Shown piece by piece: positions 15,350 through 54,569 of a stretch of DNA of 64,000 nt. Below the pieces are notes generated by a model, which did not search any database, was not told the origin of the DNA, and saw only the letters and a program-made list of their open reading frames with translations. The stretch spans positions 11,661 through 75,660 of the forward strand of contig JACKCW010000003.1 in assembly GCA_020633845.1 (NCBI GenBank). The letters run 5' to 3'. This DNA comes from Bacillales bacterium (lineage in GTDB: Bacteria > Bacillota_I > Bacilli_A > Izemoplasmatales > UBA1188). The stretch's first letter is position 1; each line of letters begins with the position of its first letter. The translations under genes were made by a program, and so were the position numbers.

Positions 15350-16285
15350 ATGGAATGGTATTATATCGTATTAATCGTCATCGGAGTGCTTCTCCTTTTA
15401 TGTTTTTTCATCGGCTTCCTTGTATGGAAAATGTCGATTCCAACCCCGCCTAAAGAGAAGTATGAAAATAAACCGACAACCGATCCGGAAGAAATAGCGA
15501 TTAGGAATTTTTCCAAGAAAATAAAAAGCGAACTGGAAAACATGAATATGGAAGAGGTGTGGATTAAATCAAAGGACGGCCTCAACCTTCATGCCTACTA
15601 TAAAGAAGCGGAAGAAAAAACTAATAAAACAATTATCAGTGTCCATGGCTGGCACGGCACCGCTTTTTCTACAGCCCCGATTTTTTCTCACTTCCTTACC
15701 GACTATAATTATAATATTCTCTTTATCGATTTAAGAAGTTACGGAAAATCTGAGGGGAAATATACTACCTATGGAGTGAAAGACTCCGAGGATTTAGTCG
15801 AATGGATTAACTACCTGATTGATAGAAATAATAATGATGTACTAATCGCTCTTTTTGGAATATCAATGGGTGGAAATACAGTAATATCTATTTCCGATAT
15901 CGTACCGAAGAATGTTAAATGCATAATTGACGATTGCGGTTTCACAACCGCTTTCGCGGAGTTTAAACATATCTTGAATCATCAGATGCATCTGCCGACT
16001 CTCTTCCTTTATTTCGCCGAATTAATCAATAAAATGATTTGCGGATGGGGGTATCAGAAAGTCTCGGGCTTAGAAGCCCTTAAAAATTCAAAGGTGCCGG
16101 TCCTTTTCATCCATGGAGGTAAAGACACTTTTGTTCCAACTAAAATGGGAGAAGAAGCATATAGCGTCTGCGCAAGCGAAAAAGAGATGAAAATCTTTGA
16201 TAACGCCAAACACGCCAGAAGTTATTTTATGAATAAAGAAGCATATAAAAATATCGTTCTCAGTTTCCTCGCGAAAAAATTATAG
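15350..16285 (+). CDS. alpha/beta hydrolase with N-terminal TM anchor
   Basis: HGWHG oxyanion region, nucleophile elbow GISMGG, and late D/H residues (HGGKDTFV ... AKHA). Confidence 0.8.
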   Translation: MEWYYIVLIVIGVLLLLCFFIGFLVWKMSIPTPPKEKYENKPTTDPEEIAIRNFSKKIKSELENMNMEEVWIKSKDGLNLHAYYKEAEEKTNKTIISVHGWHGTAFSTAPIFSHFLTDYNYNILFIDLRSYGKSEGKYTTYGVKDSEDLVEWINYLIDRNNNDVLIALFGISMGGNTVISISDIVPKNVKCIIDDCGFTTAFAEFKHILNHQMHLPTLFLYFAELINKMICGWGYQKVSGLEALKNSKVPVLFIHGGKDTFVPTKMGEEAYSVCASEKEMKIFDNAKHARSYFMNKEAYKNIVLSFLAKKL

Positions 16286-16291
16286 GATGTT

Positions 16292-17239
16292 ATGGATAAA
16301 GACAGCGCTACCGAAAAGATTTTAAATTTAATGAAAGACTTCACCGATCTTGCGGGGAGTCTTTTTAACGTAAGTAAAGATAAAGCTTTTATTGCCGCAT
16401 CTTATCTTTTATCACAAAAGAAACTGCCTTATTTCTCTAGTTTAAAGGAAAATGAAAACCGCGAAATACAGGGATATTTTGATCGGTTTCATGAGATAGA
16501 TTATAAGCCTTATGAAATGAGAAGAGCGTTTAAAGAAGCTTATCTTTTTTCTTTAAGAGAAATGGAAAAGGTCAATGTCGATACGACGCTTGAACTGCCG
16601 CTTTTATATCTTAAAATGATTACGGAAACGATTTTCTCGAAACTGAACTATGAACATACTATCGTTTTAAATCCCTCTTCCAACGACGGATCTTTAGCCC
16701 AGAGTTTAGCGGATTCTCAAATAATTAAAGAAGAGGATTTATACGTTATTGAAGAAAGAAATGATTTTTTACGGCTTTCGGAGAACTTAAGAGATTTATC
16801 CGCCTTTAACTATAAAATACAGGACTCGCTTCCGCGCTTATCCTTTAAAGCGGACATTATCGTTTCCGATCCGTTTCTTAGAAGCGTAGAAGATATTCTG
16901 ATATTTTTTGAAGATTACATCGAGTATTTGAATAACGACGGGTTTATGGTTATCGTACTGATGAACGAATTTGTCCGTTCCCGCGTTTTTACCGATAATA
17001 TCTTAAAATATAAACTGGTTTTAATCGGTATCATTGAATACCCGAAAGATCTCTTAGATGGTCTTATCGATTCTTCAATCGTCATTCTGGAAAAGAAAAA
17101 TGAAATGAATAATGAATTTTTCACCGTAGAGATGCCAAGTATCAAAAAGATTGAAGACAATCTTAAAGTGATGAACAATATTAAAGAATATATTGATGAA
17201 TACATAGGAGGATCAACCAATGAAAATAATGTCAATTAA
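16292..17239 (+). CDS. class I SAM-dependent methyltransferase-like protein (YtxK family)
   Basis: Sits immediately upstream of, and overlaps, ackA, as ytxK does in Bacillus. Has an IVSDPFL (D/NPPY-like) motif. Confidence 0.55.
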   Translation: MDKDSATEKILNLMKDFTDLAGSLFNVSKDKAFIAASYLLSQKKLPYFSSLKENENREIQGYFDRFHEIDYKPYEMRRAFKEAYLFSLREMEKVNVDTTLELPLLYLKMITETIFSKLNYEHTIVLNPSSNDGSLAQSLADSQIIKEEDLYVIEERNDFLRLSENLRDLSAFNYKIQDSLPRLSFKADIIVSDPFLRSVEDILIFFEDYIEYLNNDGFMVIVLMNEFVRSRVFTDNILKYKLVLIGIIEYPKDLLDGLIDSSIVILEKKNEMNNEFFTVEMPSIKKIEDNLKVMNNIKEYIDEYIGGSTNENNVN

Positions 17240-18410
17240 TTCCGGCTCTTCGAGTCTCAAATTCAAACTCTTCGAAATGCCGGAAGAAAAAGTGATTACC
17301 GAAGGGGTCTTTGAGAGAATCACTTTTAAGGAAGAAGGTATTTATACCATCAAAATCAACGGGGAAAAAATAAAAGAATTCCTGCCTCTTCCAAACCACG
17401 CCGTCGCGGTAGAACGTCTTTTAAAGGATTTAGTCGACCGGAAAATCATTTCGTCCTTATCGGAAATTAAGGGCGTTGGGCACCGGATAGTCCAGGGAGG
17501 AAAGTATTTTGATAAATCCGTCCTAGTCGATTCGTGGGCTAAAGACAGAATCAGAGAATTAATCGATCTTGCGCCTCTTCATAACGGACCGCACTTAATT
17601 GGAATCGAAGCTTTTGAGAAAGCTCTTCCTAATGTGAAACAAGTTGTAGTATTCGATACTGCCTTCCATCAGGGAATGGAACCGGAAGCTTTCATGTATG
17701 CCGTTCCTTATTATTGGTATACCGATTACGGCATTAGAAAATACGGAGCCCACGGAACGAGCCATCAGTTTGTCGCAAACGAATACGCAAGACTGACTAA
17801 TCAGGATATCAATAAACTGAAAATAGTTACTTGTCATCTCGGAAACGGCTGTTCACTCTGCGCGATTGAAAACGGAAGATGTAAAGATACATCCATGGGC
17901 CTCACTCCTCTTGAAGGGGTACCGATGGGCACAAGAACCGGCAACATTGATCCGACCGTTGTATCCTATATCGTCGAGAAAGAAGGCAAAACCGCTTGGG
18001 AAGTCGTTAATGAATTAAATAAAAAGAGTGGTTACCTCGGAATTTCCGGTATCTCGAATGATGCGAGAGACTTAGAAGATGCGATGGCGGAAGGCAACGA
18101 AAGAGCGACCTTGGCTATCAAAATTCAGGAAAAGAGAATTGCCGATTATATCGGGTCTTATTATCTCTACCTTGAAGGAATTGATGCGATAATCTTCACA
18201 GCCGGTATCGGCGAAAACGCGAAAGAATATCGGGAAAGAATTTGTAAGAGACTGGAGATTTTAGGAGTGGTGATTGACGATGAGGCCAATTCACAAAGAG
18301 GATATCCGTTTAGAATATCCGCGCCATCTTCTAAAATAGATGTTTGGGTAGTCCCGACCAACGAAGAATTAGTTATCGCCAGAGACACTATGCGACTGAT
18401 AAATGAATAA
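17220..18410 (+). CDS. ackA: acetate kinase
   Basis: INSGSSSLKF N-terminus. VFDTAFH, RKYGAHGTSH and TCHLGNG motifs. Confidence 0.97.
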   Translation: MKIMSINSGSSSLKFKLFEMPEEKVITEGVFERITFKEEGIYTIKINGEKIKEFLPLPNHAVAVERLLKDLVDRKIISSLSEIKGVGHRIVQGGKYFDKSVLVDSWAKDRIRELIDLAPLHNGPHLIGIEAFEKALPNVKQVVVFDTAFHQGMEPEAFMYAVPYYWYTDYGIRKYGAHGTSHQFVANEYARLTNQDINKLKIVTCHLGNGCSLCAIENGRCKDTSMGLTPLEGVPMGTRTGNIDPTVVSYIVEKEGKTAWEVVNELNKKSGYLGISGISNDARDLEDAMAEGNERATLAIKIQEKRIADYIGSYYLYLEGIDAIIFTAGIGENAKEYRERICKRLEILGVVIDDEANSQRGYPFRISAPSSKIDVWVVPTNEELVIARDTMRLINE

Positions 18411-18436
18411 AAAATCCCTTTTCGGGGATTTTTTAT
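18411..18436. terminator. bidirectional terminator after ackA
   Basis: AAAATCCC-ttttc-GGGGATTTT hairpin. Confidence 0.7.
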
Positions 18437-19133
18437 TTTAAAGATATTTTAGATAGATAAATAATATTATCGGTTAAATCACTAATTTTCATTGTCTTTC
18501 CGTGACCGGGATATATAACAAGCGGTTTAAGTTCAATGATTTTTTGCCAAGATCTGATGTATGAAGAAAGATTTTCAATGACGAAAGATACCTTATGGAA
18601 TGATAAAGGAATGTTCATCGCCGCATCGCCTACAAACATTTTTTATCTGTAAGAAGAAGAGAAAGAGAGTCTTTTGTATGTCCGGTAGTTTCAATTATGT
18701 CTCCGCCAAGCATATCTTTTAATAATTCTTTATTTTGTTCAGTATAAGGGATAAACCGTTTATCATCGTCAATAGAAGGATATGATATTCTGGATTTATT
18801 CAGTTTTCCTAAGAAAGAGGATAAAAATCCTACATAAAAAGCTTTTTGATTTTGGCCGGTTTTCATTCTTTCTTTAGCTTCTAAAGATGATATAATTAAA
18901 GCTTTTTTATTTACTTCTAATAGTCTTTTTAAAAAACCGACATGATCGCTATGGGAATGGGTAATAAAAACATAATCTATCATTAATAAAGTAAAACCCG
19001 CTTTCTCCATCATCTTTTTAAAATGATCATAATCATTTTCATAGCCTGTATCAATCAGAATCATTTTATCATTGTGAAAGTAAACGTAATTATTAACGAA
19101 AGAAGTCCCAAAATTATAAATTATCTTTTCCAT
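18433..19133 (-). pseudogene. MBL-fold metallo-hydrolase, split by a -1 frameshift in a homopolymer
   Basis: ORFs 18630..19133 (contains HSHSDHVG) and 18433..18639 are the two halves of one MBL protein. They join if the T6 run at 18639-18644 (A6 on the coding strand) is one base longer: ...LTDKK-MFVGDAAM... Confidence 0.6.
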
Positions 19134-19270
19134 TATTTCACCCTTATAAAAATATCATATCTTAGGAAAAGAAAAAAGCCAATAAAAAAGACCATTTTTA
19201 AGCGAACCCCTTCGGTTTGTTGTTCAACTTTTGGGTTTGCTTCACGATTAGAGTCTTTTTATTATTTCCA

Positions 19271-19290
19271 TTTTTGACTATTATTTGAAT
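19271..19290. repeat. left copy of an imperfect direct repeat, TTTTTGACTATTATTTGAAT
   Basis: Matches 29879-29897 (TTTTTGACTAT-ATTTGATT). The two copies bracket the holin-sigma-NTase-rhs-immunity core. Confidence 0.25.
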
Positions 19291-19433
19291 GTTTTTAAAA
19301 AACACGTCTTAGTTGAAGCGTTTTTTCCACCTAATTATTTTATATTTGACAGATAAGTAGTACAATTCAAAATAGTTTTATTATTTTTTAAGAATATTTT
19401 TAGTTTCCACTTATTATTAAGTAAACTAGACAA

Positions 19434-19811
19434 TTAGTTCTTAAGCGTATTAATAATTGATTCTATTTCGGTCGTGAGCCAAGTGTTTAGGTCTCCATAG
19501 GTGTCGCTTATATAAGTTTTAACATCCTCACTCATTTGTGTTAGAGCCGATTCTTTGGCTTTAGAAAGCGCCGTTTTCTGCGCTTCTTCATTAAACGTAC
19601 CGCTTGTCTTAAGACTCTCGACATAGGTTTGAAAAACCGACTTTACTGCGGCAGTAACTATCTCGGTTGCTGTAGACAAAAGTTTCGCCTCTTCACTGTC
19701 TTTTATTTTAGAATTAATAAGTTTAACCAGTTTGGTTCCCGCGATAGATATTAGCGGTAAAACCACCGCCGTCACAACTACGCTGATTATATTAAGTAGA
19801 ATCTCGTTCAT
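19434..19811 (-). CDS. LL-H family phage-type holin
   Basis: GGAGG RBS and one N-terminal TM. The charged C-terminus has the pattern QTYVESLK..G.F.EEAQK.A...K......M.....Y....YGDL, which I recognise as the Holin_LLH family. Confidence 0.75.
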   Translation of the reverse strand: MNEILLNIISVVVTAVVLPLISIAGTKLVKLINSKIKDSEEAKLLSTATEIVTAAVKSVFQTYVESLKTSGTFNEEAQKTALSKAKESALTQMSEDVKTYISDTYGDLNTWLTTEIESIINTLKN

Positions 19812-20115
19812 TTACACTTCCTCCTAAATTTAAATGAATATTTTGATTTTTTATATGATCATCGATTTTCTGTTCGGCTTTTATCAGTCTTGTCAGAAGA
19901 TCGTCATATTTCTCTTCAAGCTTTTCAAGCGTTTTTTCTATCCTTTCAATGCTGGATTTGATATATCCGATATCGCTTATCAGCACTCCTTCATTTTTTC
20001 CTTCCTGTTTATGGTCCTCTTTCTTAGTTCTTTTAAAAGCCAGAAAGGCAAAAAGAATGCTGGACGCGGTTCCAAAAATGCTGATGATTGAAAGAATGAT
20101 TGTTATATAGTCCAT
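19792..20115 (-). CDS. small N-terminal-TM plus coiled-coil membrane protein (BhlA/UviB-like holin-type architecture)
   Basis: The start at 20115 (MDYITIILS...) has a GGAG RBS, while the upstream Met in the ORF track lacks one. A single TM is followed by a heptad-rich helix. Overlaps the LLH holin gene by 20 nt. Confidence 0.55.
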   Translation of the reverse strand: MDYITIILSIISIFGTASSILFAFLAFKRTKKEDHKQEGKNEGVLISDIGYIKSSIERIEKTLEKLEEKYDDLLTRLIKAEQKIDDHIKNQNIHLNLGGSVNERDST

Positions 20116-20134
20116 AGATTTCTCCTCTCTCAGA

Positions 20135-20166
20135 ATATAAAGAGAGGCAAACATGAAGAAAAACAA
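20135..20166 (-). promoter_or_regulatory. shared module motif, copy 1 (upstream of holin operon): TTGTTTTT-N13-TCTCTTTATAT
   Basis: The reverse complement of 20135-20166 reads TTGTTTTTcttcatgtttgccTCTCTTTATAT. It ends 19 nt before the ATG at 20115. Confidence 0.5.
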
Positions 20167-20239
20167 CCAGAAAGCTTTTAATTTGTTTTCCTATTTGCCC
20201 CAAGACAGTGATAAAGAAAGAATAATTGCCCCTAAAAAA

Positions 20240-20271
20240 TTGTTTTTCCACGCCAAGGCTTCTCCTTATAT
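20240..20271 (+). promoter_or_regulatory. shared module motif, copy 2 (upstream of sigma factor gene): TTGTTTTT-N13-TCTCCTTATAT
   Basis: TTGTTTTTccacgccaaggctTCTCCTTATAT. It ends 15 nt before the ATG at 20287. Confidence 0.5.
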
Positions 20272-20286
20272 GAGAGGAGAACATTT

Positions 20287-20829
20287 ATGGATAATAATTA
20301 TAAAAGGTATTATTCTATCTTAAAAAACATTGCGAGGGGGTACGGAAAAGAATACGAAGACGATTTGAGACAAGACCTCTATCTTTATCTTGAAAAACTT
20401 CTGCAAGACAAAAACACCAAGAAAGCAGATAAACCGTATGCTTATATCAAAACCGCTCTTATAAATAAGGCCAAGCACCTTTTTGCGTGCGAAAAACATA
20501 TTAGAGACAAAACCATTTCTCTTGATTCAAAAAACGTGATCGATGTTCCTATTCTAGATCTTATAGCCGACATGAAGGGCTATGAAGAAGATTTAATACT
20601 CGAGGAAGTTAAAATATATTTTTATAACAACATAAAAGAAATAATGAACGAATCTTTAACCAAAAAAGAAGAAGATGTCTTTATGCTGGTTTTCTTTGAA
20701 GAAAAACCGCAAAAAGAAATTAAAGATAAACAAAACGTTTCACAACAAACTATCTCAGAAACATACAGAAGAGCCTGTCGAAAACTGAAAGATGTATTTC
20801 AGAAAATGTATGACGATTGGCCCGATTAA
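20287..20829 (+). CDS. small sigma-70 family factor (ECF/group-5, TcdR/UviA-like)
   Basis: 180 aa. Region 2-like EDDLRQDLYLYL...YIKTALINKAKHLF and region 4 HTH LTKKEEDVFMLVFFEEKPQKEIKDKQNVSQQTISETYRRACRKLK. Size, charge and layout resemble TcdR as I remember it. Confidence 0.7.
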   Translation: MDNNYKRYYSILKNIARGYGKEYEDDLRQDLYLYLEKLLQDKNTKKADKPYAYIKTALINKAKHLFACEKHIRDKTISLDSKNVIDVPILDLIADMKGYEEDLILEEVKIYFYNNIKEIMNESLTKKEEDVFMLVFFEEKPQKEIKDKQNVSQQTISETYRRACRKLKDVFQKMYDDWPD

Positions 20830-20852
20830 TGTATGTTTCTTTTTTGTTTAGG

Positions 20853-20883
20853 TTGTTTTTTCTTGATTTCCATCTCTTATATA
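20853..20883 (+). promoter_or_regulatory. shared module motif, copy 3 (upstream of NTase-A/NTase-B/rhs operon): TTGTTTTT-N12-TCTCTTATATA
   Basis: TTGTTTTTtcttgatttccaTCTCTTATATA. The TTATAT part ends 14 nt before the ATG at 20897. Confidence 0.45.
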
Positions 20884-20896
20884 ACGGAGGGTGAAA

Positions 20897-21757
20897 ATGT
20901 TAGACAATCTTAAAGCCACCGATTTTAATCCGAAAATTGAATTCAAAATGCTTAGTTTTTTAGATCTGAGTTCGGCTACAAAGTTAACGTATAAAGTAAA
21001 TAGAAAAATATTTGAAGGCAAAAAAACACCAAAGGCAATTGGAGAATTTATTTTTTATTGTTCATTTACTGTTTACCAAAAACTGAAAAACGAAAAACTT
21101 TCTTTAGATTTATTTAAAGAGTGCGCCTATGTTTATGGAGCGGTCTTTAATGAGAATAAAATAAATAATTTCTTGTTATGGTATGAAAGCATATCAGCCT
21201 TGCACCTATATTTAAGAATAGCCAAAACTCTTAAATATATAGTGAAGGAAAGGACCTTTTCAGATAAATCAACAGAAATGGCAATTCTTATTACGAATTC
21301 TTTTTTGTACAAAGCACACCACTTAGTCATTATTTATAAATGCCCTAACATCATCTATTTAGTCGGGGCAATCAAAAATGGTATAAGCGATGAATCACTC
21401 TTGAAATGCCTTGATATATTTAGCGAACTTCCGCCTCAACTAAATAATAAATACGAATTAGTTGATAAAAATACTATCATTTTGCTTCTTAAAGCCAATA
21501 AAGAAAAAATATATTCTCTAGGAATAAAAAAGCTATGGCTTTTCGGTTCTTTTGTTAACGAAGAACAGAACGAATATAGTGATGTTGATTTATATGCTTT
21601 AACCACCGAAGACGCCATCGACTCAAAAGAAGAGATATTAGTTGAACTTAAAAAAATTGTTAAAAGGCCAGTCGATTTTCATATGAATGATGATAAAACA
21701 CACTTTAACGAAAATATTTTAAAAGAAATGGAGTTGATCTTAGATGCAGATAAATAA
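20897..21757 (+). CDS. two-domain protein: helical N-terminal (degenerate Fic/Doc-like?) domain plus C-terminal MNT-type nucleotidyltransferase
   Basis: ATG at 20897 lies behind a GGAGGG RBS. The C-terminal Pol-beta NTase signature is LWLFGSFVNEEQNEYSDVDLYAL (GS at 21545-21550, DVD at 21581-21589). Confidence 0.7.
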   Translation: MLDNLKATDFNPKIEFKMLSFLDLSSATKLTYKVNRKIFEGKKTPKAIGEFIFYCSFTVYQKLKNEKLSLDLFKECAYVYGAVFNENKINNFLLWYESISALHLYLRIAKTLKYIVKERTFSDKSTEMAILITNSFLYKAHHLVIIYKCPNIIYLVGAIKNGISDESLLKCLDIFSELPPQLNNKYELVDKNTIILLLKANKEKIYSLGIKKLWLFGSFVNEEQNEYSDVDLYALTTEDAIDSKEEILVELKKIVKRPVDFHMNDDKTHFNENILKEMELILDADK

Positions 21758-22604
21758 CAGAATCAATATAAAACTTTTTTATCGTTTTATCGAATTTACT
21801 TCAAAGCTTTTAGGCACGGGGTTAACCCACGAAAAGATAAAACTCCTAGCGCTTGACATAGATAAAGCGGAATCGCTTGAAGAGATAAACCTCAAGCGAT
21901 TCTCAAGCGCCCATCTTTATCTTTTAAACAGCGTTTCCCAGAGCTTTACCAAAGATATACTAGATACATCTTATTTTATTCTTTCGGGAGAAAAACTTGA
22001 TGATGAAGTATCCGAAGGAATTTTAAATAAATATTATATGAACCTGGATGATGCAGCACACTATTTATCGAGCCTAATCCATTTCGCAGTTTTGGATAGT
22101 GTGAGCTTCAGAAAGGTTGAATTCGCTTTTTTGCTTTCAAACTATGTAATGCTTAAAAAAGAAACAAATCCGATTATCATCTATGACTGTACGAAAGACA
22201 AGTACAACAAAGCAATTGAAGATAATGACATAGACGAACTCGGACTCGTATTCTTTGAAGCCGAACAAGTGGAAAAGCCCAAAGAAAGCGACGTTTTCAT
22301 ATCTAAAGAACAAATATTCTCTTTAATTAAAGAAAACAGACCAAAAATCAAAGATTACTATAACGTTAAGAAATTATATTTATACGGTTCTTACGCCAAA
22401 GAAAAAACAACGGGATACAGTGATCTCGATTTTTTGGTTGTTTATAAAGATAAAATTCTAAACACAGAAAAAACCATGGCAACCATGCTCCTCAGAGAAT
22501 ATCTTGATTCTTTATTTCATGTTAAGACAGATATAATCGATTTTACACACGCCTTAGAAAAGCTTGATATCGGCGAAATGGAAAACACAATAACACTAAT
22601 ATAA
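21744..22604 (+). CDS. paralogue of the preceding gene: degenerate Fic/Doc-like N-terminal domain plus C-terminal MNT-type nucleotidyltransferase
   Basis: Overlaps the upstream gene by 14 nt. NTase motif LYLYGSYAKEKTTGYSDLDFLVV. The N-terminal HYLSSLIHFAVLDSVSFRKVEFAFLLSNYVMLKKETNPIIIY follows the Fic core helix pattern but has no HPFxxGNGR. Confidence 0.7.
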   Translation: MQINNRINIKLFYRFIEFTSKLLGTGLTHEKIKLLALDIDKAESLEEINLKRFSSAHLYLLNSVSQSFTKDILDTSYFILSGEKLDDEVSEGILNKYYMNLDDAAHYLSSLIHFAVLDSVSFRKVEFAFLLSNYVMLKKETNPIIIYDCTKDKYNKAIEDNDIDELGLVFFEAEQVEKPKESDVFISKEQIFSLIKENRPKIKDYYNVKKLYLYGSYAKEKTTGYSDLDFLVVYKDKILNTEKTMATMLLREYLDSLFHVKTDIIDFTHALEKLDIGEMENTITLI

Positions 22605-22617
22605 AAGGAGATTTAAA

Positions 22618-25600
22618 ATGATTCAAAAAATTACAAACAACACAATAAACCCGGGAATCACGATAGTTGATTCCAAAATTTATGGCACAAACGGAACTCT
22701 ATATTCTTATTCTTCTAGCGGCCACTATTATTCTGGTTTTAACAGCACAAAATTAATGTTTATAAAATTAACTTTCAACATTTTGTCGTCATCAGATATT
22801 CAGAGATCATACTTAAATTTAAAATATTCTGGAGTACACAATTCTACAATGCTTAGAATCTATGACACCAACCAAACTGCCACGACTTCGGCGGCGCTGT
22901 TATCTGTTATTTCCAATTACTCAAACACAGCTTATTTTGATGATGCGGTCATTATTGATGAGAGTACTATGACTGATGGATACGGACGTGCATCTTTTGA
23001 TATAACAAACATTATCAGAAGCAAAGCGACAAGCACCACTTTCAGCGTTGTGCTCATGATAGCCTCAGACTATTCAAGTGCAACTGAATTAAAATTATAT
23101 GATCCAGTTTATGATACTGATGATGTTTGTGTTACAACTTTGTCCGCGATTGACGGATTATCATCAAATTATCAATACCAGGAATCCGATGCCGGATTTG
23201 CCGGAAAAACATACGTAAATCTTGCAACGGGAAAAATGCTTTTAAATTTTGCCGGGCCATCTAGCAAAGATACAAAAATGCCTTTAGCATTTGGTTTTAC
23301 CTATAATTCAAATAGATACCAACTATCATATGATTTGGGCAACGGGGCCAAGTCCTTTTTCAATTATAAAATATATCAAAGCGGATCGTCTTTAATCGTT
23401 CAAGATCCATCTGGTTATGACAATGTTTTTACACCTATTGATGATGAAGAGGCCGAAAATCTTGATATTGATACCTCAAATCAATCTTGTGACTACTATT
23501 ATTCATACGAGACGGGATCGCACATTGCGTATAATTCATCTACTTCTTTGTTGAGGTTATACGATAAAAACGAAAACTTGATGAGTTTTTATTATAATAC
23601 GATCGTTACAAGACTTATGAGCATTTCAAATAAGCTTGGCAAAACCACAGATTATAATTGGGACATACTAAACGGCAATCCACCAGAATCAATTGAAAAC
23701 TCTGTTGGAGAGATAATGTCTTTGGTTTATGACTCTTCAGACAGAGTTGTTACAGCAACATGTAACTCTATTATTTTAACTTTCGCTTATGACGCGTCTG
23801 GTCGCTTATCAAGTGTGATAGAAAACAACGGGTCCACTAATTTGTATACTGCAACTTACGGATATGATACAAACGGATATATGAACGACATTCACGACTC
23901 TTATTCAGATACCGGAATCAGTTTTACATATACCGGAGGAAAAGTGACCAGAATAGACTATTATAAAAACTCAACAACTGAATCTGCCGGATATAAAGTA
24001 ATTGCTTACAACGATAATTTTACTAGTGTAGCCAATGAAAAAGGAGAGATTAATTATTACTACTTCAATGAAAACGGCAAATGTATTATGGTTATGGATG
24101 ACAAGGGAAAAACTATTTCATTTAACTATGATGAAATAAAAAATGGTTTATCTAGTAATCTTTCCGGTCAGTCTCACGTTCAACATAATTCTAGAAATTT
24201 GATTGAAAATAATAGTTTTGAAAGCAATGATGATTTATTTGGAGATGACTCTTGTTGGACTATTTCAGGAGCGTCTTCTACAACTGCGGAAACAGTTGAT
24301 GATGGAGTATATGGGCAAAAATCTTTAAAAGTATCTCACGCTGCCGGAGAAACGATAACAATTTCTCAAAATTTGCATAATGTCTATGAGGGAACATACA
24401 TTTTAAAAGGATTTTTAAAACGTTATACACAAGCAAGTGCGATTACTTCAAGCAATATAAAAATCAAATTAATCGGAAGCTACGACATAACTGAAAGCGT
24501 TCCTGTGACCACAACGCAAAGCGATGGCACAACAGTCACAACATATGTTAATCAAACAAATCATTGTGACAATTTATCAGTAGAAAATGCATCTTTTTCC
24601 GGAGATTCTAATTGGGTTGCTTTTAGTCTTCCTGCTTTAAGTTTTCCTACAGCATCATTTAATAATACCTTAAATATTACAATCCAATTAATCGGAAACA
24701 CATATGATGTTTATTTTGACGAACTACAACTTAACAGCAAAGATATGAGCGCTAGATATAATTATGTTGAAAATGGATATATGGAATATGGAAGCGTGCT
24801 GCCTACTGGATTCGCAATGAATAGCGTTGGCCTTTTGGATTCTATTTATACTCTTACTTCATCAGATGAACATGCATCTATTCTGGGCAAAAAAGTAATG
24901 CGGCTTTATGAAACATGTGCCTATACTCAAACATCTGGAACTATCAATTCAAAAAAATTCTATCGAGAGATTCCGATAAAAGGAATTGAAGGAGAAGAAC
25001 TAGTATTTAGCATCTTTGCCAAGGCTTTAGCTACAGAAAATAATATTTTCAGAGCCTATATAATTTTTAATTATGTTGGCCAAAGTGCCGTATCAACCTA
25101 TAGGTTCGATTTTATCAAAGACTTTTCTAACTGGCAAATGCTTACAAAAAGCATAACAGCCGAGCACTCATACGATGGAATTATTCTAGGAGTGGAGTAT
25201 GCCGGAAAGTCAAACGCATATATTGATGCCTTCCAGCTTTATAAAGATAACTATGGAAAGTACTATTCATATGATAAAAAAGGCAACCTTATTAACACAG
25301 TGGATGGCGCATCTTCCTCGAGCTTTTCTTACAACGATCTAAATGAAATTGAAAGCGCCTCTTTGAGCGACGGCAGTTACTATAGATATGAATATGATGA
25401 CGATAGACAAATTACCGGCGTATATGATTCAAACGGCAATCATCTAGTGATGGAGTACGACGATAATGGAAATAGAACCAGCGTTCAATTATTTGATGTC
25501 AATGGCAAAGCACTAAATGTGTCATCAGCCTATAATTCCTACAGCAAAGCACTTAGTTATACTAATGAATTAAATGAAACTACAACATACAGCTTTGATG

Positions 25601-28600
25601 CAAAAGGATTACTTCAAACTACTACAGATCCAACTGGGCAAGTCGAAAGAAATTCTTATGATAGTTATGATAGGCTCATTTGTCTCGATTCATTTCACGG
25701 AGGAAACGCACCAACAAATGCAGAAAACCAATACAGCTATAACAGCCTTAATCAATTGGCCTCAATTTCAAGTAACAACGGCACGACGTATGGATTTGTT
25801 TATGATGACTTTGGAAGAATAACAGAGATAAACATAGATGGAGCAAGATACCAATCAAAAGAATACAATTTAAGTCACGGTACTCCGTCTGTGAATACCG
25901 GATTATTAACTATGAAAAGATATGGGACATCAGGAGACTACTATGCTTTTACTTATGACGATAATGATAGAATAGCTACTGTTTTACTAAACGGAAACCA
26001 AATTGCAGCCTATGAATATGATGAAAACGGACAAATATCCAAATCAACCGACTCTGTAAATGATAATACTAGAAATTTCTCCTATGATTTAAAGGGAAAT
26101 TTGAAAAAATCAACCGACTCTGACGGCAACTCTATTTCTTATTTTTACGACAATCTTGGTGCTGTTCAAAAAACCATCTATGAAATAAACGAAAAAAATA
26201 GAACATTTGATTACCAGTATACATATGAAGAAAATGAATACTCAAAAGAAGGATATTTTGAAAGACTGAGTACTGTTTATGGAGACGAGATAATAAAAGG
26301 AAATATGCTCGGAAAAGGAACATACGGAGCTACACCCGATGAAGATATCCCTAGTTCTATGGTTTATACAGACGACGTTATTAAAATGTCTGTTTATAAG
26401 TTTTCAACAGCAGATAACAAAATAGAATATGAACTATCTAAATTTAATAATGATAGGGATGGGATATATTATAACTCCACTCAGTTTAACTACAATGTCT
26501 GGAAATCAAACTTTGCAAACGAAAAGACTTTCTATGCCTGGATAAAACCGATGGGCAGTTTTTCTGAGGAATGCATTTTCCAGTTTGCCGATATTACTAA
26601 TCAAACGACATATTGCAGTTTGGTAGTCAATTCAACTGGGCATTTAGGACTAAAACCATATAATTCAAGTAGTATGGCCTTAACCTCGAGCGCCTTAACA
26701 ATAGGAGTTTATAACCTTGTTGGAGTCCAGTTTATCAAATCTTCTTCTTCAATTACCGCGAGATTAATTGTAAACGGAAATGTAACAGAATTTTCAACAA
26801 CCATTGACCCTAGTAATTTTGGATACTTAAAAGTGGCCGATCAAAGGGAATATAATTACTCAAGTTTACTCCCTATGTATATTTATATAGCATTTATGTC
26901 TGCCGGCTCTTATCCATATACAGCCGATGACTTTCAAGCAATTTATAAAGCCGGCGCGCCTTATCTTTCTAGCATAATAAACAGAGAAAGTAAAACGAGT
27001 GGAGTACTGTATTATAATAAAACACCATATGAAAGCTTTGATATTATAACGCTTAATGGGAGCTTCGTGTCCAGCAAGGGCTTAGAGCCGAAAACTATTG
27101 TTGAAACCGATAATTCATATAAGGTTGACAAGGCAAAACTATTCAAATACGACCTTACTCTTAAAAAACATATATATGGAAGTTATAGTAGTGTTGTGAA
27201 TTTAACTCCTGGTAACAATTCTAAATTGGTATATGATTTAGGGCTAGGTGCATCAGGCACTATATCAATTAGATATCGCTTTGACGCATCAGCAAGTCAA
27301 GATACTTATCCTAAAATGTTGTTCTCTTTCATTAACGGCAGTACAACACATTTATATGCCGAATATCAAAGTAGCACTGGCTTTAAAATATACGATAATG
27401 CAGGTCATTCTACTGTTATTCCTTTTGATACAGGAGTTTGGCATACCTTATCATTATCATATAACTCAAGCGGAACTCTACTTTATCAAGACTTAACAAG
27501 TATATCCAACTCACTAAGCATAAATTTAACCGGTTGTGAAGCGTATATAGGCTCCGGAAGTTCAGACAACACTCAAATGGATGGAGACATGGAAATGCTT
27601 GTATTTGGAAATTCTAAAGCTACGGCAACACAACTTCAAGCATTCTACAGCGGAAGAAAATCATACTCTGTGTTAAAAACACACGACTTACTAGATCGTA
27701 TTACCAAAAAAGAGATAATAAAAAATTCTGCAACTGCTTCTCATACTACCACAACATATTATACTCATGGGGATACTACAACCGCAATTCATCCACTTGT
27801 TCATAGTGAGGAGACTACAACTAAAGAGCAAAATGTAAGCACAACAGAAGTAACAATTTACTCATATGATTCTTTAAATAATGTTACGTCAAAACTAGTA
27901 ACAGACGCAAACGGAGTCGGAAAAGAAAGAGTCGATTACTCATACGATGAGATTGGCAGATTATCTGAAGAGGATACATACACTTATGTGAGCGGCACCG
28001 GTCTCGTCTTAACTTATAAATTTAAGTACACATATGATCAAAACGGAAATATTACATATAGAAAAAAATACAGTTCCACAGACAGTCTTCTTGCAACAAA
28101 ATCCTATGTATATGATCAAACAATAAAAGATAGATTAGCAAGCGTCACCGATGGAAATACCACCACCACTATTACATATGGTACCGGCTTTGCATTTAAC
28201 CCGACATATATAGGATCTACCCCACTAGCATGGAGCGGAAGAAGATTAACCGGATATGGCTCAAACCTATTTGTTTACAACGAAGATGGAATAAGAATTA
28301 GAAAAACATCAGTTGGATTTGCAACTCATACTTATGATTTAGAAGGAAAAAGGGTAGTCGGCGAAACAATAGATAGTCCATCAATTCACTTTGATTATAA
28401 CTATGATGAAGAAGGGACACTTATTGGACTTACTTATAATGGAATTGAATACTTCTATTTAAGAGATATAACTGGAAATATTGTCAAAATAGTTGATGAA
28501 TCTGGAAATACAGTAGTAAAATATAGTTATGATGCATGGGGCACAGTAACAAAAACAAATATTGCAAACACCACTGCATCAGGTATCCTCTATACATACA

Positions 28601-29325
28601 ATCCATATTTATACAAAGGCTATTATTACGACAGAGAAACTAATTTGTATTACTGCAACAGCAGATACTACAGTCCTTCTTTATGCAGATGGATATCGGC
28701 TGACGCAATAGACAATCTTGATCAATCAACGATTGATGGAATAAATCTATACGCGTATTGTGGTAATAACCCAGTAATGGGATATGATCCAGAAGGAAAA
28801 TGGAATTGGAAAAAATTCGCCATTGCACTTGCTGTATCTATTGTTATAGTGGCGGTTACTGTGGCTATAGTTGTTGCAACCACCGCAACTGGTGGACTTG
28901 CAATGCTTATTATTGGGGCTGCAGTTACCACTGGTGTAGTTTTGTCTTACGCAGCAGGCGCAGAAAAAACAGTGGTCATAGATTTAAGTTGTTATTTATG
29001 GGATGTTGGCGGAGGAAATTCTCTGGTCATTGATTTTAAAAATGATTCATGCGAACTATACTCTCATGGTGGGTTTGTGATGGGAGATAGTCCCATGGCT
29101 ATTTCTTTCTCTGTCGGACTTGTTGATAATTATAAAGGAAAACGCGGATACGAAGGACCATTTATGAAGATTGGAGGAGGATATAAAATTGGAATTGAAC
29201 ACGCTTTTGATCCGACTAAACCATATGATGAAACCGTTAGAGCTACAACAGTAACTTTTTCAAATTCTTTTGGAGTATACGCAGGATTTGATTATTATAC
29301 TAGTTTATTTTATTTTAATTTCTAG
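22618..29325 (+). CDS. Rhs/YD-repeat polymorphic toxin (2235 aa) with a variable C-terminal toxin domain
   Basis: Many YD repeats (YDASGRL, YGYDTNGY, YEYDDDRQ, YDDNGN, YSYDEIGRL, YTYDQNGN). Rhs core end YNPYLYKGYYYDRETNLYYCNSRYYSPSLCRWISADA...NLYAYCGNNPVMGYDPEGK (DPEG at 28786-28797). No signal peptide, LXG, WXG or PAAR-like N-terminus is visible. Confidence 0.9.
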   Translation: MIQKITNNTINPGITIVDSKIYGTNGTLYSYSSSGHYYSGFNSTKLMFIKLTFNILSSSDIQRSYLNLKYSGVHNSTMLRIYDTNQTATTSAALLSVISNYSNTAYFDDAVIIDESTMTDGYGRASFDITNIIRSKATSTTFSVVLMIASDYSSATELKLYDPVYDTDDVCVTTLSAIDGLSSNYQYQESDAGFAGKTYVNLATGKMLLNFAGPSSKDTKMPLAFGFTYNSNRYQLSYDLGNGAKSFFNYKIYQSGSSLIVQDPSGYDNVFTPIDDEEAENLDIDTSNQSCDYYYSYETGSHIAYNSSTSLLRLYDKNENLMSFYYNTIVTRLMSISNKLGKTTDYNWDILNGNPPESIENSVGEIMSLVYDSSDRVVTATCNSIILTFAYDASGRLSSVIENNGSTNLYTATYGYDTNGYMNDIHDSYSDTGISFTYTGGKVTRIDYYKNSTTESAGYKVIAYNDNFTSVANEKGEINYYYFNENGKCIMVMDDKGKTISFNYDEIKNGLSSNLSGQSHVQHNSRNLIENNSFESNDDLFGDDSCWTISGASSTTAETVDDGVYGQKSLKVSHAAGETITISQNLHNVYEGTYILKGFLKRYTQASAITSSNIKIKLIGSYDITESVPVTTTQSDGTTVTTYVNQTNHCDNLSVENASFSGDSNWVAFSLPALSFPTASFNNTLNITIQLIGNTYDVYFDELQLNSKDMSARYNYVENGYMEYGSVLPTGFAMNSVGLLDSIYTLTSSDEHASILGKKVMRLYETCAYTQTSGTINSKKFYREIPIKGIEGEELVFSIFAKALATENNIFRAYIIFNYVGQSAVSTYRFDFIKDFSNWQMLTKSITAEHSYDGIILGVEYAGKSNAYIDAFQLYKDNYGKYYSYDKKGNLINTVDGASSSSFSYNDLNEIESASLSDGSYYRYEYDDDRQITGVYDSNGNHLVMEYDDNGNRTSVQLFDVNGKALNVSSAYNSYSKALSYTNELNETTTYSFDAKGLLQTTTDPTGQVERNSYDSYDRLICLDSFHGGNAPTNAENQYSYNSLNQLASISSNNGTTYGFVYDDFGRITEINIDGARYQSKEYNLSHGTPSVNTGLLTMKRYGTSGDYYAFTYDDNDRIATVLLNGNQIAAYEYDENGQISKSTDSVNDNTRNFSYDLKGNLKKSTDSDGNSISYFYDNLGAVQKTIYEINEKNRTFDYQYTYEENEYSKEGYFERLSTVYGDEIIKGNMLGKGTYGATPDEDIPSSMVYTDDVIKMSVYKFSTADNKIEYELSKFNNDRDGIYYNSTQFNYNVWKSNFANEKTFYAWIKPMGSFSEECIFQFADITNQTTYCSLVVNSTGHLGLKPYNSSSMALTSSALTIGVYNLVGVQFIKSSSSITARLIVNGNVTEFSTTIDPSNFGYLKVADQREYNYSSLLPMYIYIAFMSAGSYPYTADDFQAIYKAGAPYLSSIINRESKTSGVLYYNKTPYESFDIITLNGSFVSSKGLEPKTIVETDNSYKVDKAKLFKYDLTLKKHIYGSYSSVVNLTPGNNSKLVYDLGLGASGTISIRYRFDASASQDTYPKMLFSFINGSTTHLYAEYQSSTGFKIYDNAGHSTVIPFDTGVWHTLSLSYNSSGTLLYQDLTSISNSLSINLTGCEAYIGSGSSDNTQMDGDMEMLVFGNSKATATQLQAFYSGRKSYSVLKTHDLLDRITKKEIIKNSATASHTTTTYYTHGDTTTAIHPLVHSEETTTKEQNVSTTEVTIYSYDSLNNVTSKLVTDANGVGKERVDYSYDEIGRLSEEDTYTYVSGTGLVLTYKFKYTYDQNGNITYRKKYSSTDSLLATKSYVYDQTIKDRLASVTDGNTTTTITYGTGFAFNPTYIGSTPLAWSGRRLTGYGSNLFVYNEDGIRIRKTSVGFATHTYDLEGKRVVGETIDSPSIHFDYNYDEEGTLIGLTYNGIEYFYLRDITGNIVKIVDESGNTVVKYSYDAWGTVTKTNIANTTASGILYTYNPYLYKGYYYDRETNLYYCNSRYYSPSLCRWISADAIDNLDQSTIDGINLYAYCGNNPVMGYDPEGKWNWKKFAIALAVSIVIVAVTVAIVVATTATGGLAMLIIGAAVTTGVVLSYAAGAEKTVVIDLSCYLWDVGGGNSLVIDFKNDSCELYSHGGFVMGDSPMAISFSVGLVDNYKGKRGYEGPFMKIGGGYKIGIEHAFDPTKPYDETVRATTVTFSNSFGVYAGFDYYTSLFYFNF
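28499..28803 (+). repeat. rhs core 3' homology block (recombination substrate), master copy
   Basis: Nucleotide-level similarity to 32348-32626 over the full block and to 30984-31186 over its 3' two-thirds. Similarity ends at the DPxG codons. Confidence 0.8.
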
Positions 29326-54554: not shown

Positions 54555-54569
54555 AAGTCTCATCCTCCC

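Follow-up and report, generated by a model that had tools for sequence, protein, structure and literature searches.

Why would a pair of predicted nucleotidyltransferases sit directly in front of the gene for a giant polymorphic toxin? The question is raised by a 64,000-nucleotide stretch of DNA from a 'Bacillales bacterium' (Izemoplasmatales; assembly GCA_020633845.1, contig JACKCW010000003.1, positions 11,661 to 75,660), hereafter the window. In it two overlapping genes, P1 and P2, lie between a sigma factor gene (TIGR02937, Sigma70_r4) on the 5' side and an Rhs/YD-repeat toxin gene (RHS_repeat) on the 3' side, as a sequence-only reading of the stretch had placed them (Table 1). We found that each protein joins a Fic-fold domain, which has lost the nucleotide-binding loop, to a nucleotidyltransferase (NTase) domain with conserved catalytic residues, and that homologues are very strongly linked to rhs genes. 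P1 and P2 probably form a new accessory enzyme of Rhs toxin production or release. What is new is the domain architecture and an accessory component inside known classes of system, the parts themselves being known.

A Fic-like fold joined to a minimal nucleotidyltransferase

The open reading frame (ORF) call for P1 (20891..21757) would give 288 residues if a GTG start were used. The ATG at 20897, the start chosen in the sequence-only reading, sits 6 nt past a GGAGG and yields the 286-residue product identical to MCB9498815.1, which shows that this coordinate was right; P2 is MCB9498816.1, both entries coming from the 'Bacillales bacterium' metagenome-assembled genome (MAG). The ORF listing bears out the 14-nt overlap of the two genes (21744-21757), and all three peptide strings quoted in that reading are found in the translations. 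The reading had allowed that the proteins might belong to an already characterised family; the database label of both is merely 'nucleotidyltransferase domain-containing protein'.

The last ~90 residues match Pfam Polbeta (PF18765; E 5e-12 for P1, 6e-10 for P2) and NTP_transf_2 (E 1e-8 and 6.5e-10, respectively), all of these matches exceeding the gathering cut-offs and thus lying far beyond chance. The best PDB profile match of the C-terminus is MntA (5yep, E 6e-9), and a Foldseek search with AlphaFold2 (AF2) models matched the C-terminus to MntA/MNT chains for both proteins. Residues E47, L213, G215, S226, D227 and D229 are invariant in the alignment of P2-type sequences (A1), with S216 and D263 present in >=90 %, and G217, S218, S228, D229, D231 and D260 are invariant in the P1-type alignment (A2). 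The NTase constellation G-S...S-D-x-D...D is invariant or nearly so in both paralogue families, indicating that the enzyme half is under purifying selection. The same residues are retained in all but one of 25 distant members sampled, the exception (P0186) having no NTase motif, and this conservation across both families and distant members argues for a real enzymatic activity. The canonical minimal Pol-beta motif and the MNT-like C-terminus that had been proposed for both genes are thus upheld, and each protein is, as judged from its sequence, an intact minimal (MNT-type) nucleotidyltransferase.

In their C-terminal part (aa ~185-286) P1 and P2 resemble the MntA/MNT proteins (Shewanella SO_3166, 5yep, 7bxo; Aphanizomenon 7ae2), which give the best sequence-profile and fold matches and share the minimal Pol-beta fold, the hGS-x10-12-SDhD motif and a downstream Asp. 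Unlike these proteins, they add a 185-residue Fic-fold N-domain and have Rhs, rather than HEPN, as genomic partner. No HEPN/DUF86 match was found in the neighbouring window ORFs scanned or in the small ORFs beside relatives, in agreement with the earlier statement that a HEPN partner is missing. The scores against the NCBIfam MntA equivalog (NF047752; 40.1 and 39.6 bits) lie under its cut-off of 60, and because of this score and the missing partner we do not regard P1 and P2 as MntA equivalogs. Matches to Pfam, NCBIfam and PADLOC were confined to the NTase part, and neither protein has a PHROG match.

The first ~185 residues correspond to no Pfam, NCBIfam, PADLOC or PHROG family. Pfam Fic (PF02661) did not match full-length P1 or P2, nor any of 24 isolated N-domains at E <= 10. 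The AF2 models (P2: mean predicted local distance difference test, pLDDT, 88.5, with residues 11-170 at 93-99; P1: pLDDT 87.9, predicted template-modelling score, pTM, 0.80) both comprise nine helices, a low-confidence linker and an alpha/beta NTase domain. Over the N-terminal ~180-230 columns Foldseek matched both models to Fic proteins only in the PDB, and every PDB match at E <= 1e-3 is a Fic protein. For P2 these include BT_2513 (3cuc, E 1e-4), Bordetella Fic, FICD and Clostridioides difficile Fic (CdFic, 4x2e), the last with a template-modelling (TM) score by target length of 0.70-0.73 over 183 columns; for P1 they include FICD (6i7l, E 1e-4), BT_2513 and CdFic (TM 0.62-0.69 by target length), and the CdFic matches of both models span 177-189 columns. 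Among the viral structures of BFVD, phage and nudivirus Fic proteins and Pol-beta NTases were matched separately, with no fusion of the two.

A weak but specific Fic signal is also present at the sequence level, and emerges only once the NTase domain is removed. A full-length profile matched nothing in the PDB beyond the NTase part; with a profile of the N-domain only, 9 of the 11 matches at E < 10 were Fic proteins (best E-values 0.07 for 3cuc and 0.3-0.85 for FICD). Single-sequence phmmer searches of the PDB returned nothing for P1, and the top match of P2, a plant asparaginyl endopeptidase (6azt, E 0.004), was rejected as a chance match with which the profile and fold searches disagree.

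The profile alignment allows helices alpha4-alpha7 to be placed in register with Fic. The segment 'HyLaaLiHl...' corresponds to the helix that in Fic ends with the catalytic His, the position of which lies inside a 2-residue deletion in the alignment to 3cuc and FICD. The position of the GNGR Arg is occupied by the invariant E126 and that of the second Arg by F129, and A128 and N133 correspond to the Ala and Asn conserved in the Fic post-motif helix. The HxFx[D/E]GNGRxxR motif is absent from P1, P2, 55 aligned relatives and 25 distant relatives. In a very weak second alignment, P2 FTSKLLG falls on the inhibitory TVAIEG of FICD with Glu replaced by Leu, so that the class II inhibitory Glu position appears to be a Leu. 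DSSP assignment of both AF2 models revealed no flap beta-hairpin in the N-domain, and the loop at the expected flap site (P2 aa 82-86) is 5 residues long in the model.

The N-domain is thus a Fic-fold homologue without the nucleotide-binding loop and, in the models, without a flap. It resembles class II Fic AMPylases (4x2e, 3cuc, FICD 4u04/6i7l) in its helical fold (TM up to 0.73) and in A128 and N133, and differs from them in lacking HPFx[D/E]GNGRxxR, the flap in the models and a Pfam Fic match, for which reasons we consider that it is not an AMPylase; failing on motif, flap and hidden Markov model (HMM) alike, it should not be filed as a Fic enzyme. This confirms the degenerate Fic/Doc-like domain that had been suggested (by AF2 and Foldseek, and weakly by the N-domain profile) and the replacement of its HPFxxGNGR loop, which is seen in the profile alignment. 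A HEPN or KNTase_C fold, the alternative named beforehand, was not among the structural matches. A HEPN reading of the N-domain was rejected on the same ground, and because the sole Rx4H string of P2 (R52-H57) is not conserved across the family alignment. The combination of a minimal NTase with an all-alpha partner is also known from HI0073 with HI0074 and from KNTase-type enzymes, HI0073 (1no5) being among our matches; in P1 and P2, unlike these, the helical part has a Fic fold and is N-terminal to the NTase.

P1 and P2 align by BLASTP at 29 % identity over 164 residues (E 3e-8), and the profiles of their orthologues align over 275 columns (hhalign, 99.9 % probability, E 7e-33); by these comparisons they are full-length paralogues. 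Genes just 5' of P2 orthologues match P1 over its full length at 21-30 % identity (A2). In a distance tree, every upstream copy falls into one clade, including the copy of a distant locus (L080) and two solitary extra copies, and the other clade holds all downstream, single-copy and Rhs-downstream copies. The inclusion of distant upstream copies in one clade indicates that the duplication is ancient. A search with P2 returned ~107 full-length relatives at the 90 % cluster level and one with P1 returned itself alone; from the sequences compared, the P1 type is the faster evolving, and the P2 type the copy that is always retained, widespread and better conserved. Acholeplasma equirhinis (locus L003, 5315-6121) and Izimaplasma HR2 (L001, 1268-2125) have an extra solitary P1-type gene nearby. 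The A. equirhinis locus also holds at least a second copy of the whole module directly after the first (18462-20885), in which genes for 302 (- strand) and 53 residues are followed by sigma, a gene for 130 residues and others.

The N-domain profile identified 197 clusters at E <= 1e-3 among 1.84 billion representative proteins (filter-only HMM search), and nearly all full-length members have 275-313 residues. We inspected 25 distant members, and found the order of N-domain and NTase kept in all and the HPFxxGNGR loop in none; one (P0261) has an N-terminal extension. The uniform length and the shared architecture of distant members indicate that the fusion is fixed, and among the top N-domain HMM matches sampled none has a live Fic motif or another C-terminal domain.

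Hosts are Candidatus Izimaplasma HR2, Acholeplasma equirhinis, Acholeplasmataceae and Acholeplasmatales MAGs, Anaeroplasma, uncultured 'Bacilli', 'Mollicutes' or 'Firmicutes' MAGs, and one 'Prevotella' bin; one member (P0087) is present on 646 contigs. The 'Prevotella sp.' contig and a contig of Anaeroplasma bactoclasticum (L022, L033) share the same gene order (NTase, GH9 cellulase and others), and the former is probably mis-binned rather than a Bacteroidota occurrence. A phage origin of P1 and P2 was rejected, since PHROGs gave no match and tblastn none among 50,697 phage records. The literature searched describes neither a Fic/NTase fusion nor an NTase partner for Rhs, and a 2012 survey of polymorphic toxins (PMC3482391) mentions no such NTase partner.

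Linkage of the family to Rhs toxins

In the window, the Rhs gene starts 13 nt beyond the P2 stop codon. The proposal that the pair is co-transcribed with rhs is supported by the 13-14 nt junctions, by a promoter-like motif before P1 (see below) and by the absence of an early terminator, no convincing + strand terminator having been found ahead of 29821. The Rhs N-terminus (MIQKITNNTINPGITIVDSK) has no hydrophobic segment and no apparent signal peptide. Its extreme end is conserved as MI[KQ]x[FI][ST]NxT..P.I (window 22618-22680 and Rhs starts in L001-L032) and may be a recognition or export tag. Beyond about residue 2100 the protein has a variable tip with hydrophobic helices, and both this tip and the immunity gene that follows are shared by two other loci only (L011 and L017). 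Further 3', an orphan Rhs C-terminal fragment and a DUF4275 gene (30968..32238) form a spare toxin-tip/immunity cassette, and two overlapping ORFs of 170 and 139 residues without family match (32717-33633) may be another cassette.

We surveyed the loci of relatives (numbered L001 onwards) by calling ORFs in all of them and scanning these with custom HMMs, and counted 31 non-redundant loci. An Rhs gene lies beside the family gene in 25 of the 31. In 19 it is directly 3', with a gap of 10-26 bp (205 bp in L028); in the other six it lies 0.4-2.6 kb 5', usually with one or two immunity-like genes between (Imm44 in L029). The linkage extends to distant relatives, L080 having the order sigma, XhlA-like, holin, NTase, NTase and then a protein of >2168 residues, and L079 an NTase gene followed by one for a YD-repeat protein. 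Adjacency to an Rhs gene and co-orientation with it are conserved across lineages. A reciprocal scan with the Rhs N-terminus recovered a single metagenome locus (L081: XhlA-like, holin, P2-type, Rhs), which agrees with the linkage but as one case has no statistical power. These results run opposite to the possibility, raised earlier, that homologues would show no linkage with rhs.

The Rhs proteins encoded 3' of P2-type genes in the 19 loci are full-length orthologues of the window Rhs (26-35 % identity), the tips of which diverge beyond about residue 2100. P2 orthologues (34-51 % identity) thus accompany Rhs proteins with differing tips and immunity genes, indicating that P2 is tied to the constant part of the system and not to one toxin domain. 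We rejected an immunity function for P1 and P2, since the family is conserved across different toxin tips and 19 loci have the gene 5' of Rhs. In the subclade with the NTase gene downstream of Rhs, ORFs of ~123 residues by P2 were considered as HEPN or holin partners and rejected; they are soluble and acidic, match no family and have the look of immunity genes, Imm44 occupying that place in one locus. In one locus of this subclade (L006, 9249-14432), the unit of toxin tip, small ORF, ~120-residue ORF and P2-type NTase occurs twice with an insertion sequence (rve) between, and the toxin-tip cassettes of this lineage take the NTase gene along with them. We additionally observed in L004/L006/L007 (1571-3784) that a holin gene, a 187-residue gene and a Mur-ligase-like gene (Mur_ligase_M/C), an odd toxin companion, open the operon and directly precede Rhs.

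Sigma factor, holin cassette and a shared promoter-like motif

The sigma factor encoded 5' of P1 also matches phage sigma PHROGs (E 1e-8), and sigma genes recur in seven loci (L001, L003, L015, L021, L023, L024 and L080). Divergent from it in the window is a phage-derived lysis-type cassette without endolysin (19434-20115, - strand), in which the gene for the holin, a protein with one N-terminal transmembrane (TM) segment, overlaps the end of the XhlA-like gene; the latter likely starts at ATG 20115 rather than TTG 20166. No endolysin or other peptidoglycan hydrolase and no spanin was found among the ORFs scanned near the locus, which do not comprise every ORF. Genes for XhlA-like protein and holin lie directly 5' of the NTase gene(s) on the same strand in L011, L015, L016, L030, L080 and L081, Phage_holin_5_2 is present in L004, L011 (E 4e-13) and L080, and in the Rhs-downstream subclade XhlA-like and holin genes precede the Rhs gene. 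Loci of Acholeplasma/Izimaplasma type have instead a conserved protein of ~120-134 residues, encoded directly after the sigma gene or overlapping it; with its one or two TM segments and acidic tail (EEQRG motif), it may represent either a holin or an anti-sigma factor.

The 64-kb window has exactly three copies of the sequence TTGTTTTT-N16-18-TTATAT against 0.10 expected, and none of 100 shuffles reached that number. All three end 14-20 nt ahead of a start codon or its ribosome-binding site (RBS). The copy before the sigma gene suggests autoregulation, and the simplest reading of the three is a candidate regulon of the locus sigma factor comprising its own gene, the holin cassette and the P1-P2-Rhs-immunity operon. 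The exact motif of the window is not conserved at the equivalent positions of other loci, and a looser pattern matched L011 only. A different 16-mer, TTCCCAGTAYWAGTGA, occurs before sigma and xhlA in L080 and before xhlA in L015, and nowhere else in 81 loci; promoter and sigma factor appear to co-evolve.

Table 1. Features of the P1-P2-Rhs locus and of related loci. Positions refer to the window unless a locus is named.
Feature	Position	Strand	Remarks
Holin	19434..19811	-	125 aa; PHROG 13712 E 4.6e-27; Phage_holin_6_1 E 5e-4
XhlA-like single-pass membrane/coiled-coil protein	19792..20115	-	weak XhlA PF10779; phrog_1863 E 9e-9
Promoter-like motif, N18 spacer	20135..20166	-	before XhlA-like/holin operon; GGAG RBS and ATG 20115 follow
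Promoter-like motif, N18 spacer	20240..20271	+	ends 15 nt ahead of sigma start codon
Sigma-70 family factor, extracytoplasmic function (ECF)-like	20287..20829	+	180 aa; TIGR02937 E 3e-14; Sigma70_r4 E 1e-9
Promoter-like motif, N16 spacer	20853..20882	+	ends 14 nt ahead of P1 start codon
P1, upstream paralogue	20897..21757	+	286 aa; pseudo-Fic aa ~1-185, MNT-type NTase aa ~190-286
P2, downstream paralogue	21744..22604	+	286 aa; architecture as P1
Rhs/YD-repeat toxin	22618..29325	+	2235 aa; RHS_repeat E 4e-34
Putative cognate immunity protein	29335..29796	+	153 aa; membrane protein; directly after toxin gene
Hairpin, 16-bp stem	29821..29858		probable operon end
Orphan Rhs C-terminal fragment	30968-31765	+	phmmer against Rhs E 2e-41
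DUF4275 gene	31780-32238	+	DUF4275 E 1.8e-15
1-2-TM protein	L003 8699-9103; L021 8768-9154; L023 8759-9154; L024 9053-9448		no family match
1-2-TM protein	L001 8591-8953	-	no family match
TTCCCAGTAYWAGTGA, preceded by CCCCCTCAAA	L015 5695-5710; L080 1530-1545, 2025-2040		lineage-specific element

A proposed role for P1 and P2 and its alternatives

Several roles for the pair had been put forward from the sequence as guesses, among them an embedded toxin-antitoxin (TA) or defence pair. The evidence presented here disfavours that option and favours an accessory role dedicated to Rhs. We tentatively read P1 and P2 as the dedicated catalytic accessory of a self-contained Rhs toxin system, a reading to which we give somewhat less than an even chance, and roughly half of that chance would fall to Rhs itself as the substrate. 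Much like TcdR of C. difficile, the locus sigma factor would jointly activate the toxin operon, the holin cassette and its own gene. P1 and P2 would act in the cytoplasm of the producer as a predicted heterodimer, P2 alone (where it is the only copy) as a homodimer; minimal NTases, MntA and KNTase among them, work as dimers. The MNT domain would transfer a nucleotide, most likely AMP as in MntA, onto a protein hydroxyl, with the dead Fic domain as a scaffold for binding the partner or substrate, as HEPN or HI0074-type partners are elsewhere. The most likely target would be Rhs itself, or a producer-cell protein that handles Rhs before release, and its modification would serve maturation, safety or licensing ahead of release.

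The signal-less Rhs protein would then exit by holin-mediated permeabilisation or lysis, and holin-dependent release of giant signal-less toxins has precedent (PMC10847048, PMC9527704). No endolysin would be needed in Bacilli that are often wall-less or thin-walled. Peptidoglycan deficiency or a thin wall prevails in the host clade (PMC10868615), as distinct from the window organism itself, and for this reason an endolysin may be dispensable. The full scenario, in which Rhs toxins of wall-less and reduced-genome Bacilli would require covalent nucleotidylation, and a heterodimeric, Fic-fold-guided MNT enzyme would AMPylate either the Rhs protein or the holin machinery and so license maturation or release in a sigma-driven, holin-executed 'suicide release', is doubtful when taken as a whole.

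Taken as a whole, the locus resembles a release system of PaLoc or type-10 style with an Rhs polymorphic toxin as its load. The pathogenicity locus (PaLoc) of C. difficile (TcdR, TcdE, TcdA/B) and the holin-cassette (type 10) release of Tc toxins in Yersinia (PMC10847048; PMC9527704) likewise bring together, within a single locus, a dedicated regulator or alternative sigma factor, a phage-derived holin cassette and a giant toxin lacking a signal peptide; a repeated promoter element, one copy of which precedes the sigma gene itself, is a further shared feature. In contrast to both, the window locus has no endolysin or spanin among the scanned neighbours, and it carries an Rhs polymorphic toxin accompanied by an immunity gene and spare tips, a combination suggestive of inter-bacterial use; neither system has a counterpart of the pseudo-Fic/NTase genes.

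Several points weigh against our reading. No Rhs gene was found in 6 of the 31 loci, which are mostly short or decayed contigs, some with PT-HINT toxin remnants. In the subclade of L004/L006, L026, L029, L035 and L037 the family gene is 3' of Rhs and its immunity gene(s), and the Rhs of this subclade shares with the window Rhs solely the C-terminal shell region, making a specific N-terminal docking site on Rhs unlikely. L008, L017, L028 and L032 have no holin or sigma gene in the fetched flank, and we infer the promoter motif and its assignment to the locus sigma factor from sequence. Finally, minimal NTases also make nucleotide signals and modify RNA or small molecules, activities that sequence cannot separate.

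One rival explanation is that P1 and P2 are a signal-nucleotide synthase whose product would hold the holin or another membrane effector closed, or open it, and thereby time Rhs release, as the MNT-like HalB acts on the HalA channel in the Hailong defence system. The NTase genes directly follow XhlA-like and holin genes in the six loci named above (L011, L015, L016, L030, L080 and L081), the window pair and the holin operon share a promoter motif, and HalB is among the weak matches of the NTase domain (NCBIfam E 0.004; PDB 9dbh E 0.007). The HalB model (NF051895), however, gives 16.8 bits against a cut-off of 190, over ~35-40 of its 211 positions, and the tightest and most general linkage is with Rhs and not with the holin. 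P2-Rhs pairs occur without a holin in the flank (L008/L020, L017, L028 and L032), and P2 lies ~8 kb from the holin in the Rhs-downstream subclade, so that we consider such a synthase unlikely. Somewhat more unlikely is a hitch-hiking TA or anti-phage module of type VII-like character, in which AMPylation by the MNT domain would neutralise a toxin and the Fic domain would be the former or present toxin. Among characterised proteins the C-terminal domain is closest to MntA antitoxins, the PADLOC candidate family PDC-S09 matches the NTase domain (P2 E 4e-15), and Fic proteins act as toxins in the FicT/FicA and VbhT/VbhA systems, making a decayed fusion of Fic toxin and MNT antitoxin a plausible origin. 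Against this, the Fic motif is missing in all members examined, hence no toxin activity is expected, and the neighbouring ORFs scanned revealed neither a HEPN nor any other partner toxin. That Rhs stays syntenic at a spacing of 10-26 bp across lineages of 34-50 % identity is unlike mobile TA or defence cassettes, there are no PHROG or phage tblastn matches, and a sigma-type promoter-like motif stands before the pair, as it does before the holin operon and the sigma gene.

The position of the pair immediately 3' of the sigma gene in the window would fit a regulator of the sigma factor, acting as an anti-sigma factor or by partner-switching through nucleotidylation, which would determine how large a share of the cells fires the toxin/holin programme. 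The seven loci listed above also have sigma genes (L001, L003, L015, L021, L023, L024 and L080), and the motif before the sigma gene suggests autoregulation, autoregulated systems usually needing a brake. Many P2-Rhs loci nevertheless have no sigma gene in the flank, and in Acholeplasma loci the small membrane protein overlapping sigma is a more conventional anti-sigma candidate than P1; we judge this explanation to be quite improbable. We give the same low weight to a non-catalytic chaperone or adaptor of the giant Rhs protein in which the NTase fold would serve for dimerisation only. The location just 5' of the toxin gene and the conservation independent of the tip are typical of effector chaperones such as EagR/DUF1795 for Rhs proteins of the T6SS (type VI secretion system) and Lap1/Lap2 for LXG proteins of the T7SS (type VII system). 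The folds of these chaperones are unrelated, they are non-enzymes whereas P1 and P2 keep an intact NTase active site, and no use of T6SS or T7SS for this Rhs toxin is known from the host clade; the near-invariant G-S...S-D-x-D...D constellation, present in distant clades too, is not predicted by a structural role. Very improbable, finally, is a small-molecule nucleotidyltransferase of ANT/KNTase type, with the helical domain as a substrate pocket and the link to Rhs incidental. In KNTase-type enzymes, too, which function as dimers, an NTase is joined to a helical domain, and there are weak matches of ANT(9), ANT(4') and KNTase to the NTase core, but the scores fall far short of the family cut-offs (18 bits where 340 are required), the order of the domains is reversed, the fold of the helical domain is that of Fic and not of KNTase_C, and the strict linkage to Rhs would be left unexplained. 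Membership of either HalB or ANT was rejected for the same reason of scores far under the NCBIfam cut-offs.

Under the full licensing scenario, P1 and P2 would be an enzymatic licensing factor of a sort not described before for any Rhs toxin, and one AMPylase fold would for the first time be seen to act as the targeting domain for another. Rhs toxins are a widespread class of weapon, the handling and export of which outside T6SS and T7SS is poorly understood, especially in wall-less and reduced-genome Bacilli, some lineages of which recur widely in metagenomes. The locus presents a compact and testable system, with one sigma factor, one motif, a holin cassette, a toxin with its immunity gene and a linked enzyme pair. 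For the study of AMPylation it provides a natural Fic domain that has kept its fold, lost its catalytic elements and become fused to an AMPylase-type domain of another fold. For annotation, ~200 clusters of 'nucleotidyltransferase domain-containing protein' become recognisable as Rhs-associated pseudo-Fic/NTase proteins.

Elsewhere in the window, we observed acetate kinase and alpha/beta-hydrolase genes just 5' of the toxin locus (15350-18410), as in A. equirhinis (L003, 464-5273). This shared flank suggests either that the chromosomal placement is conserved or that the window organism is closely related to the Acholeplasmatales. A gene of metallo-beta-lactamase fold is split into two overlapping ORFs of 167 and 68 residues (18433-19133, - strand), and is either a frameshifted pseudogene or an assembly error. 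Three large ORFs of 732, 861 and 1155 residues (3771-5969, +; 51978-54563, -; and 54570-58037, -, respectively) have no Pfam match at E <= 1e-5.

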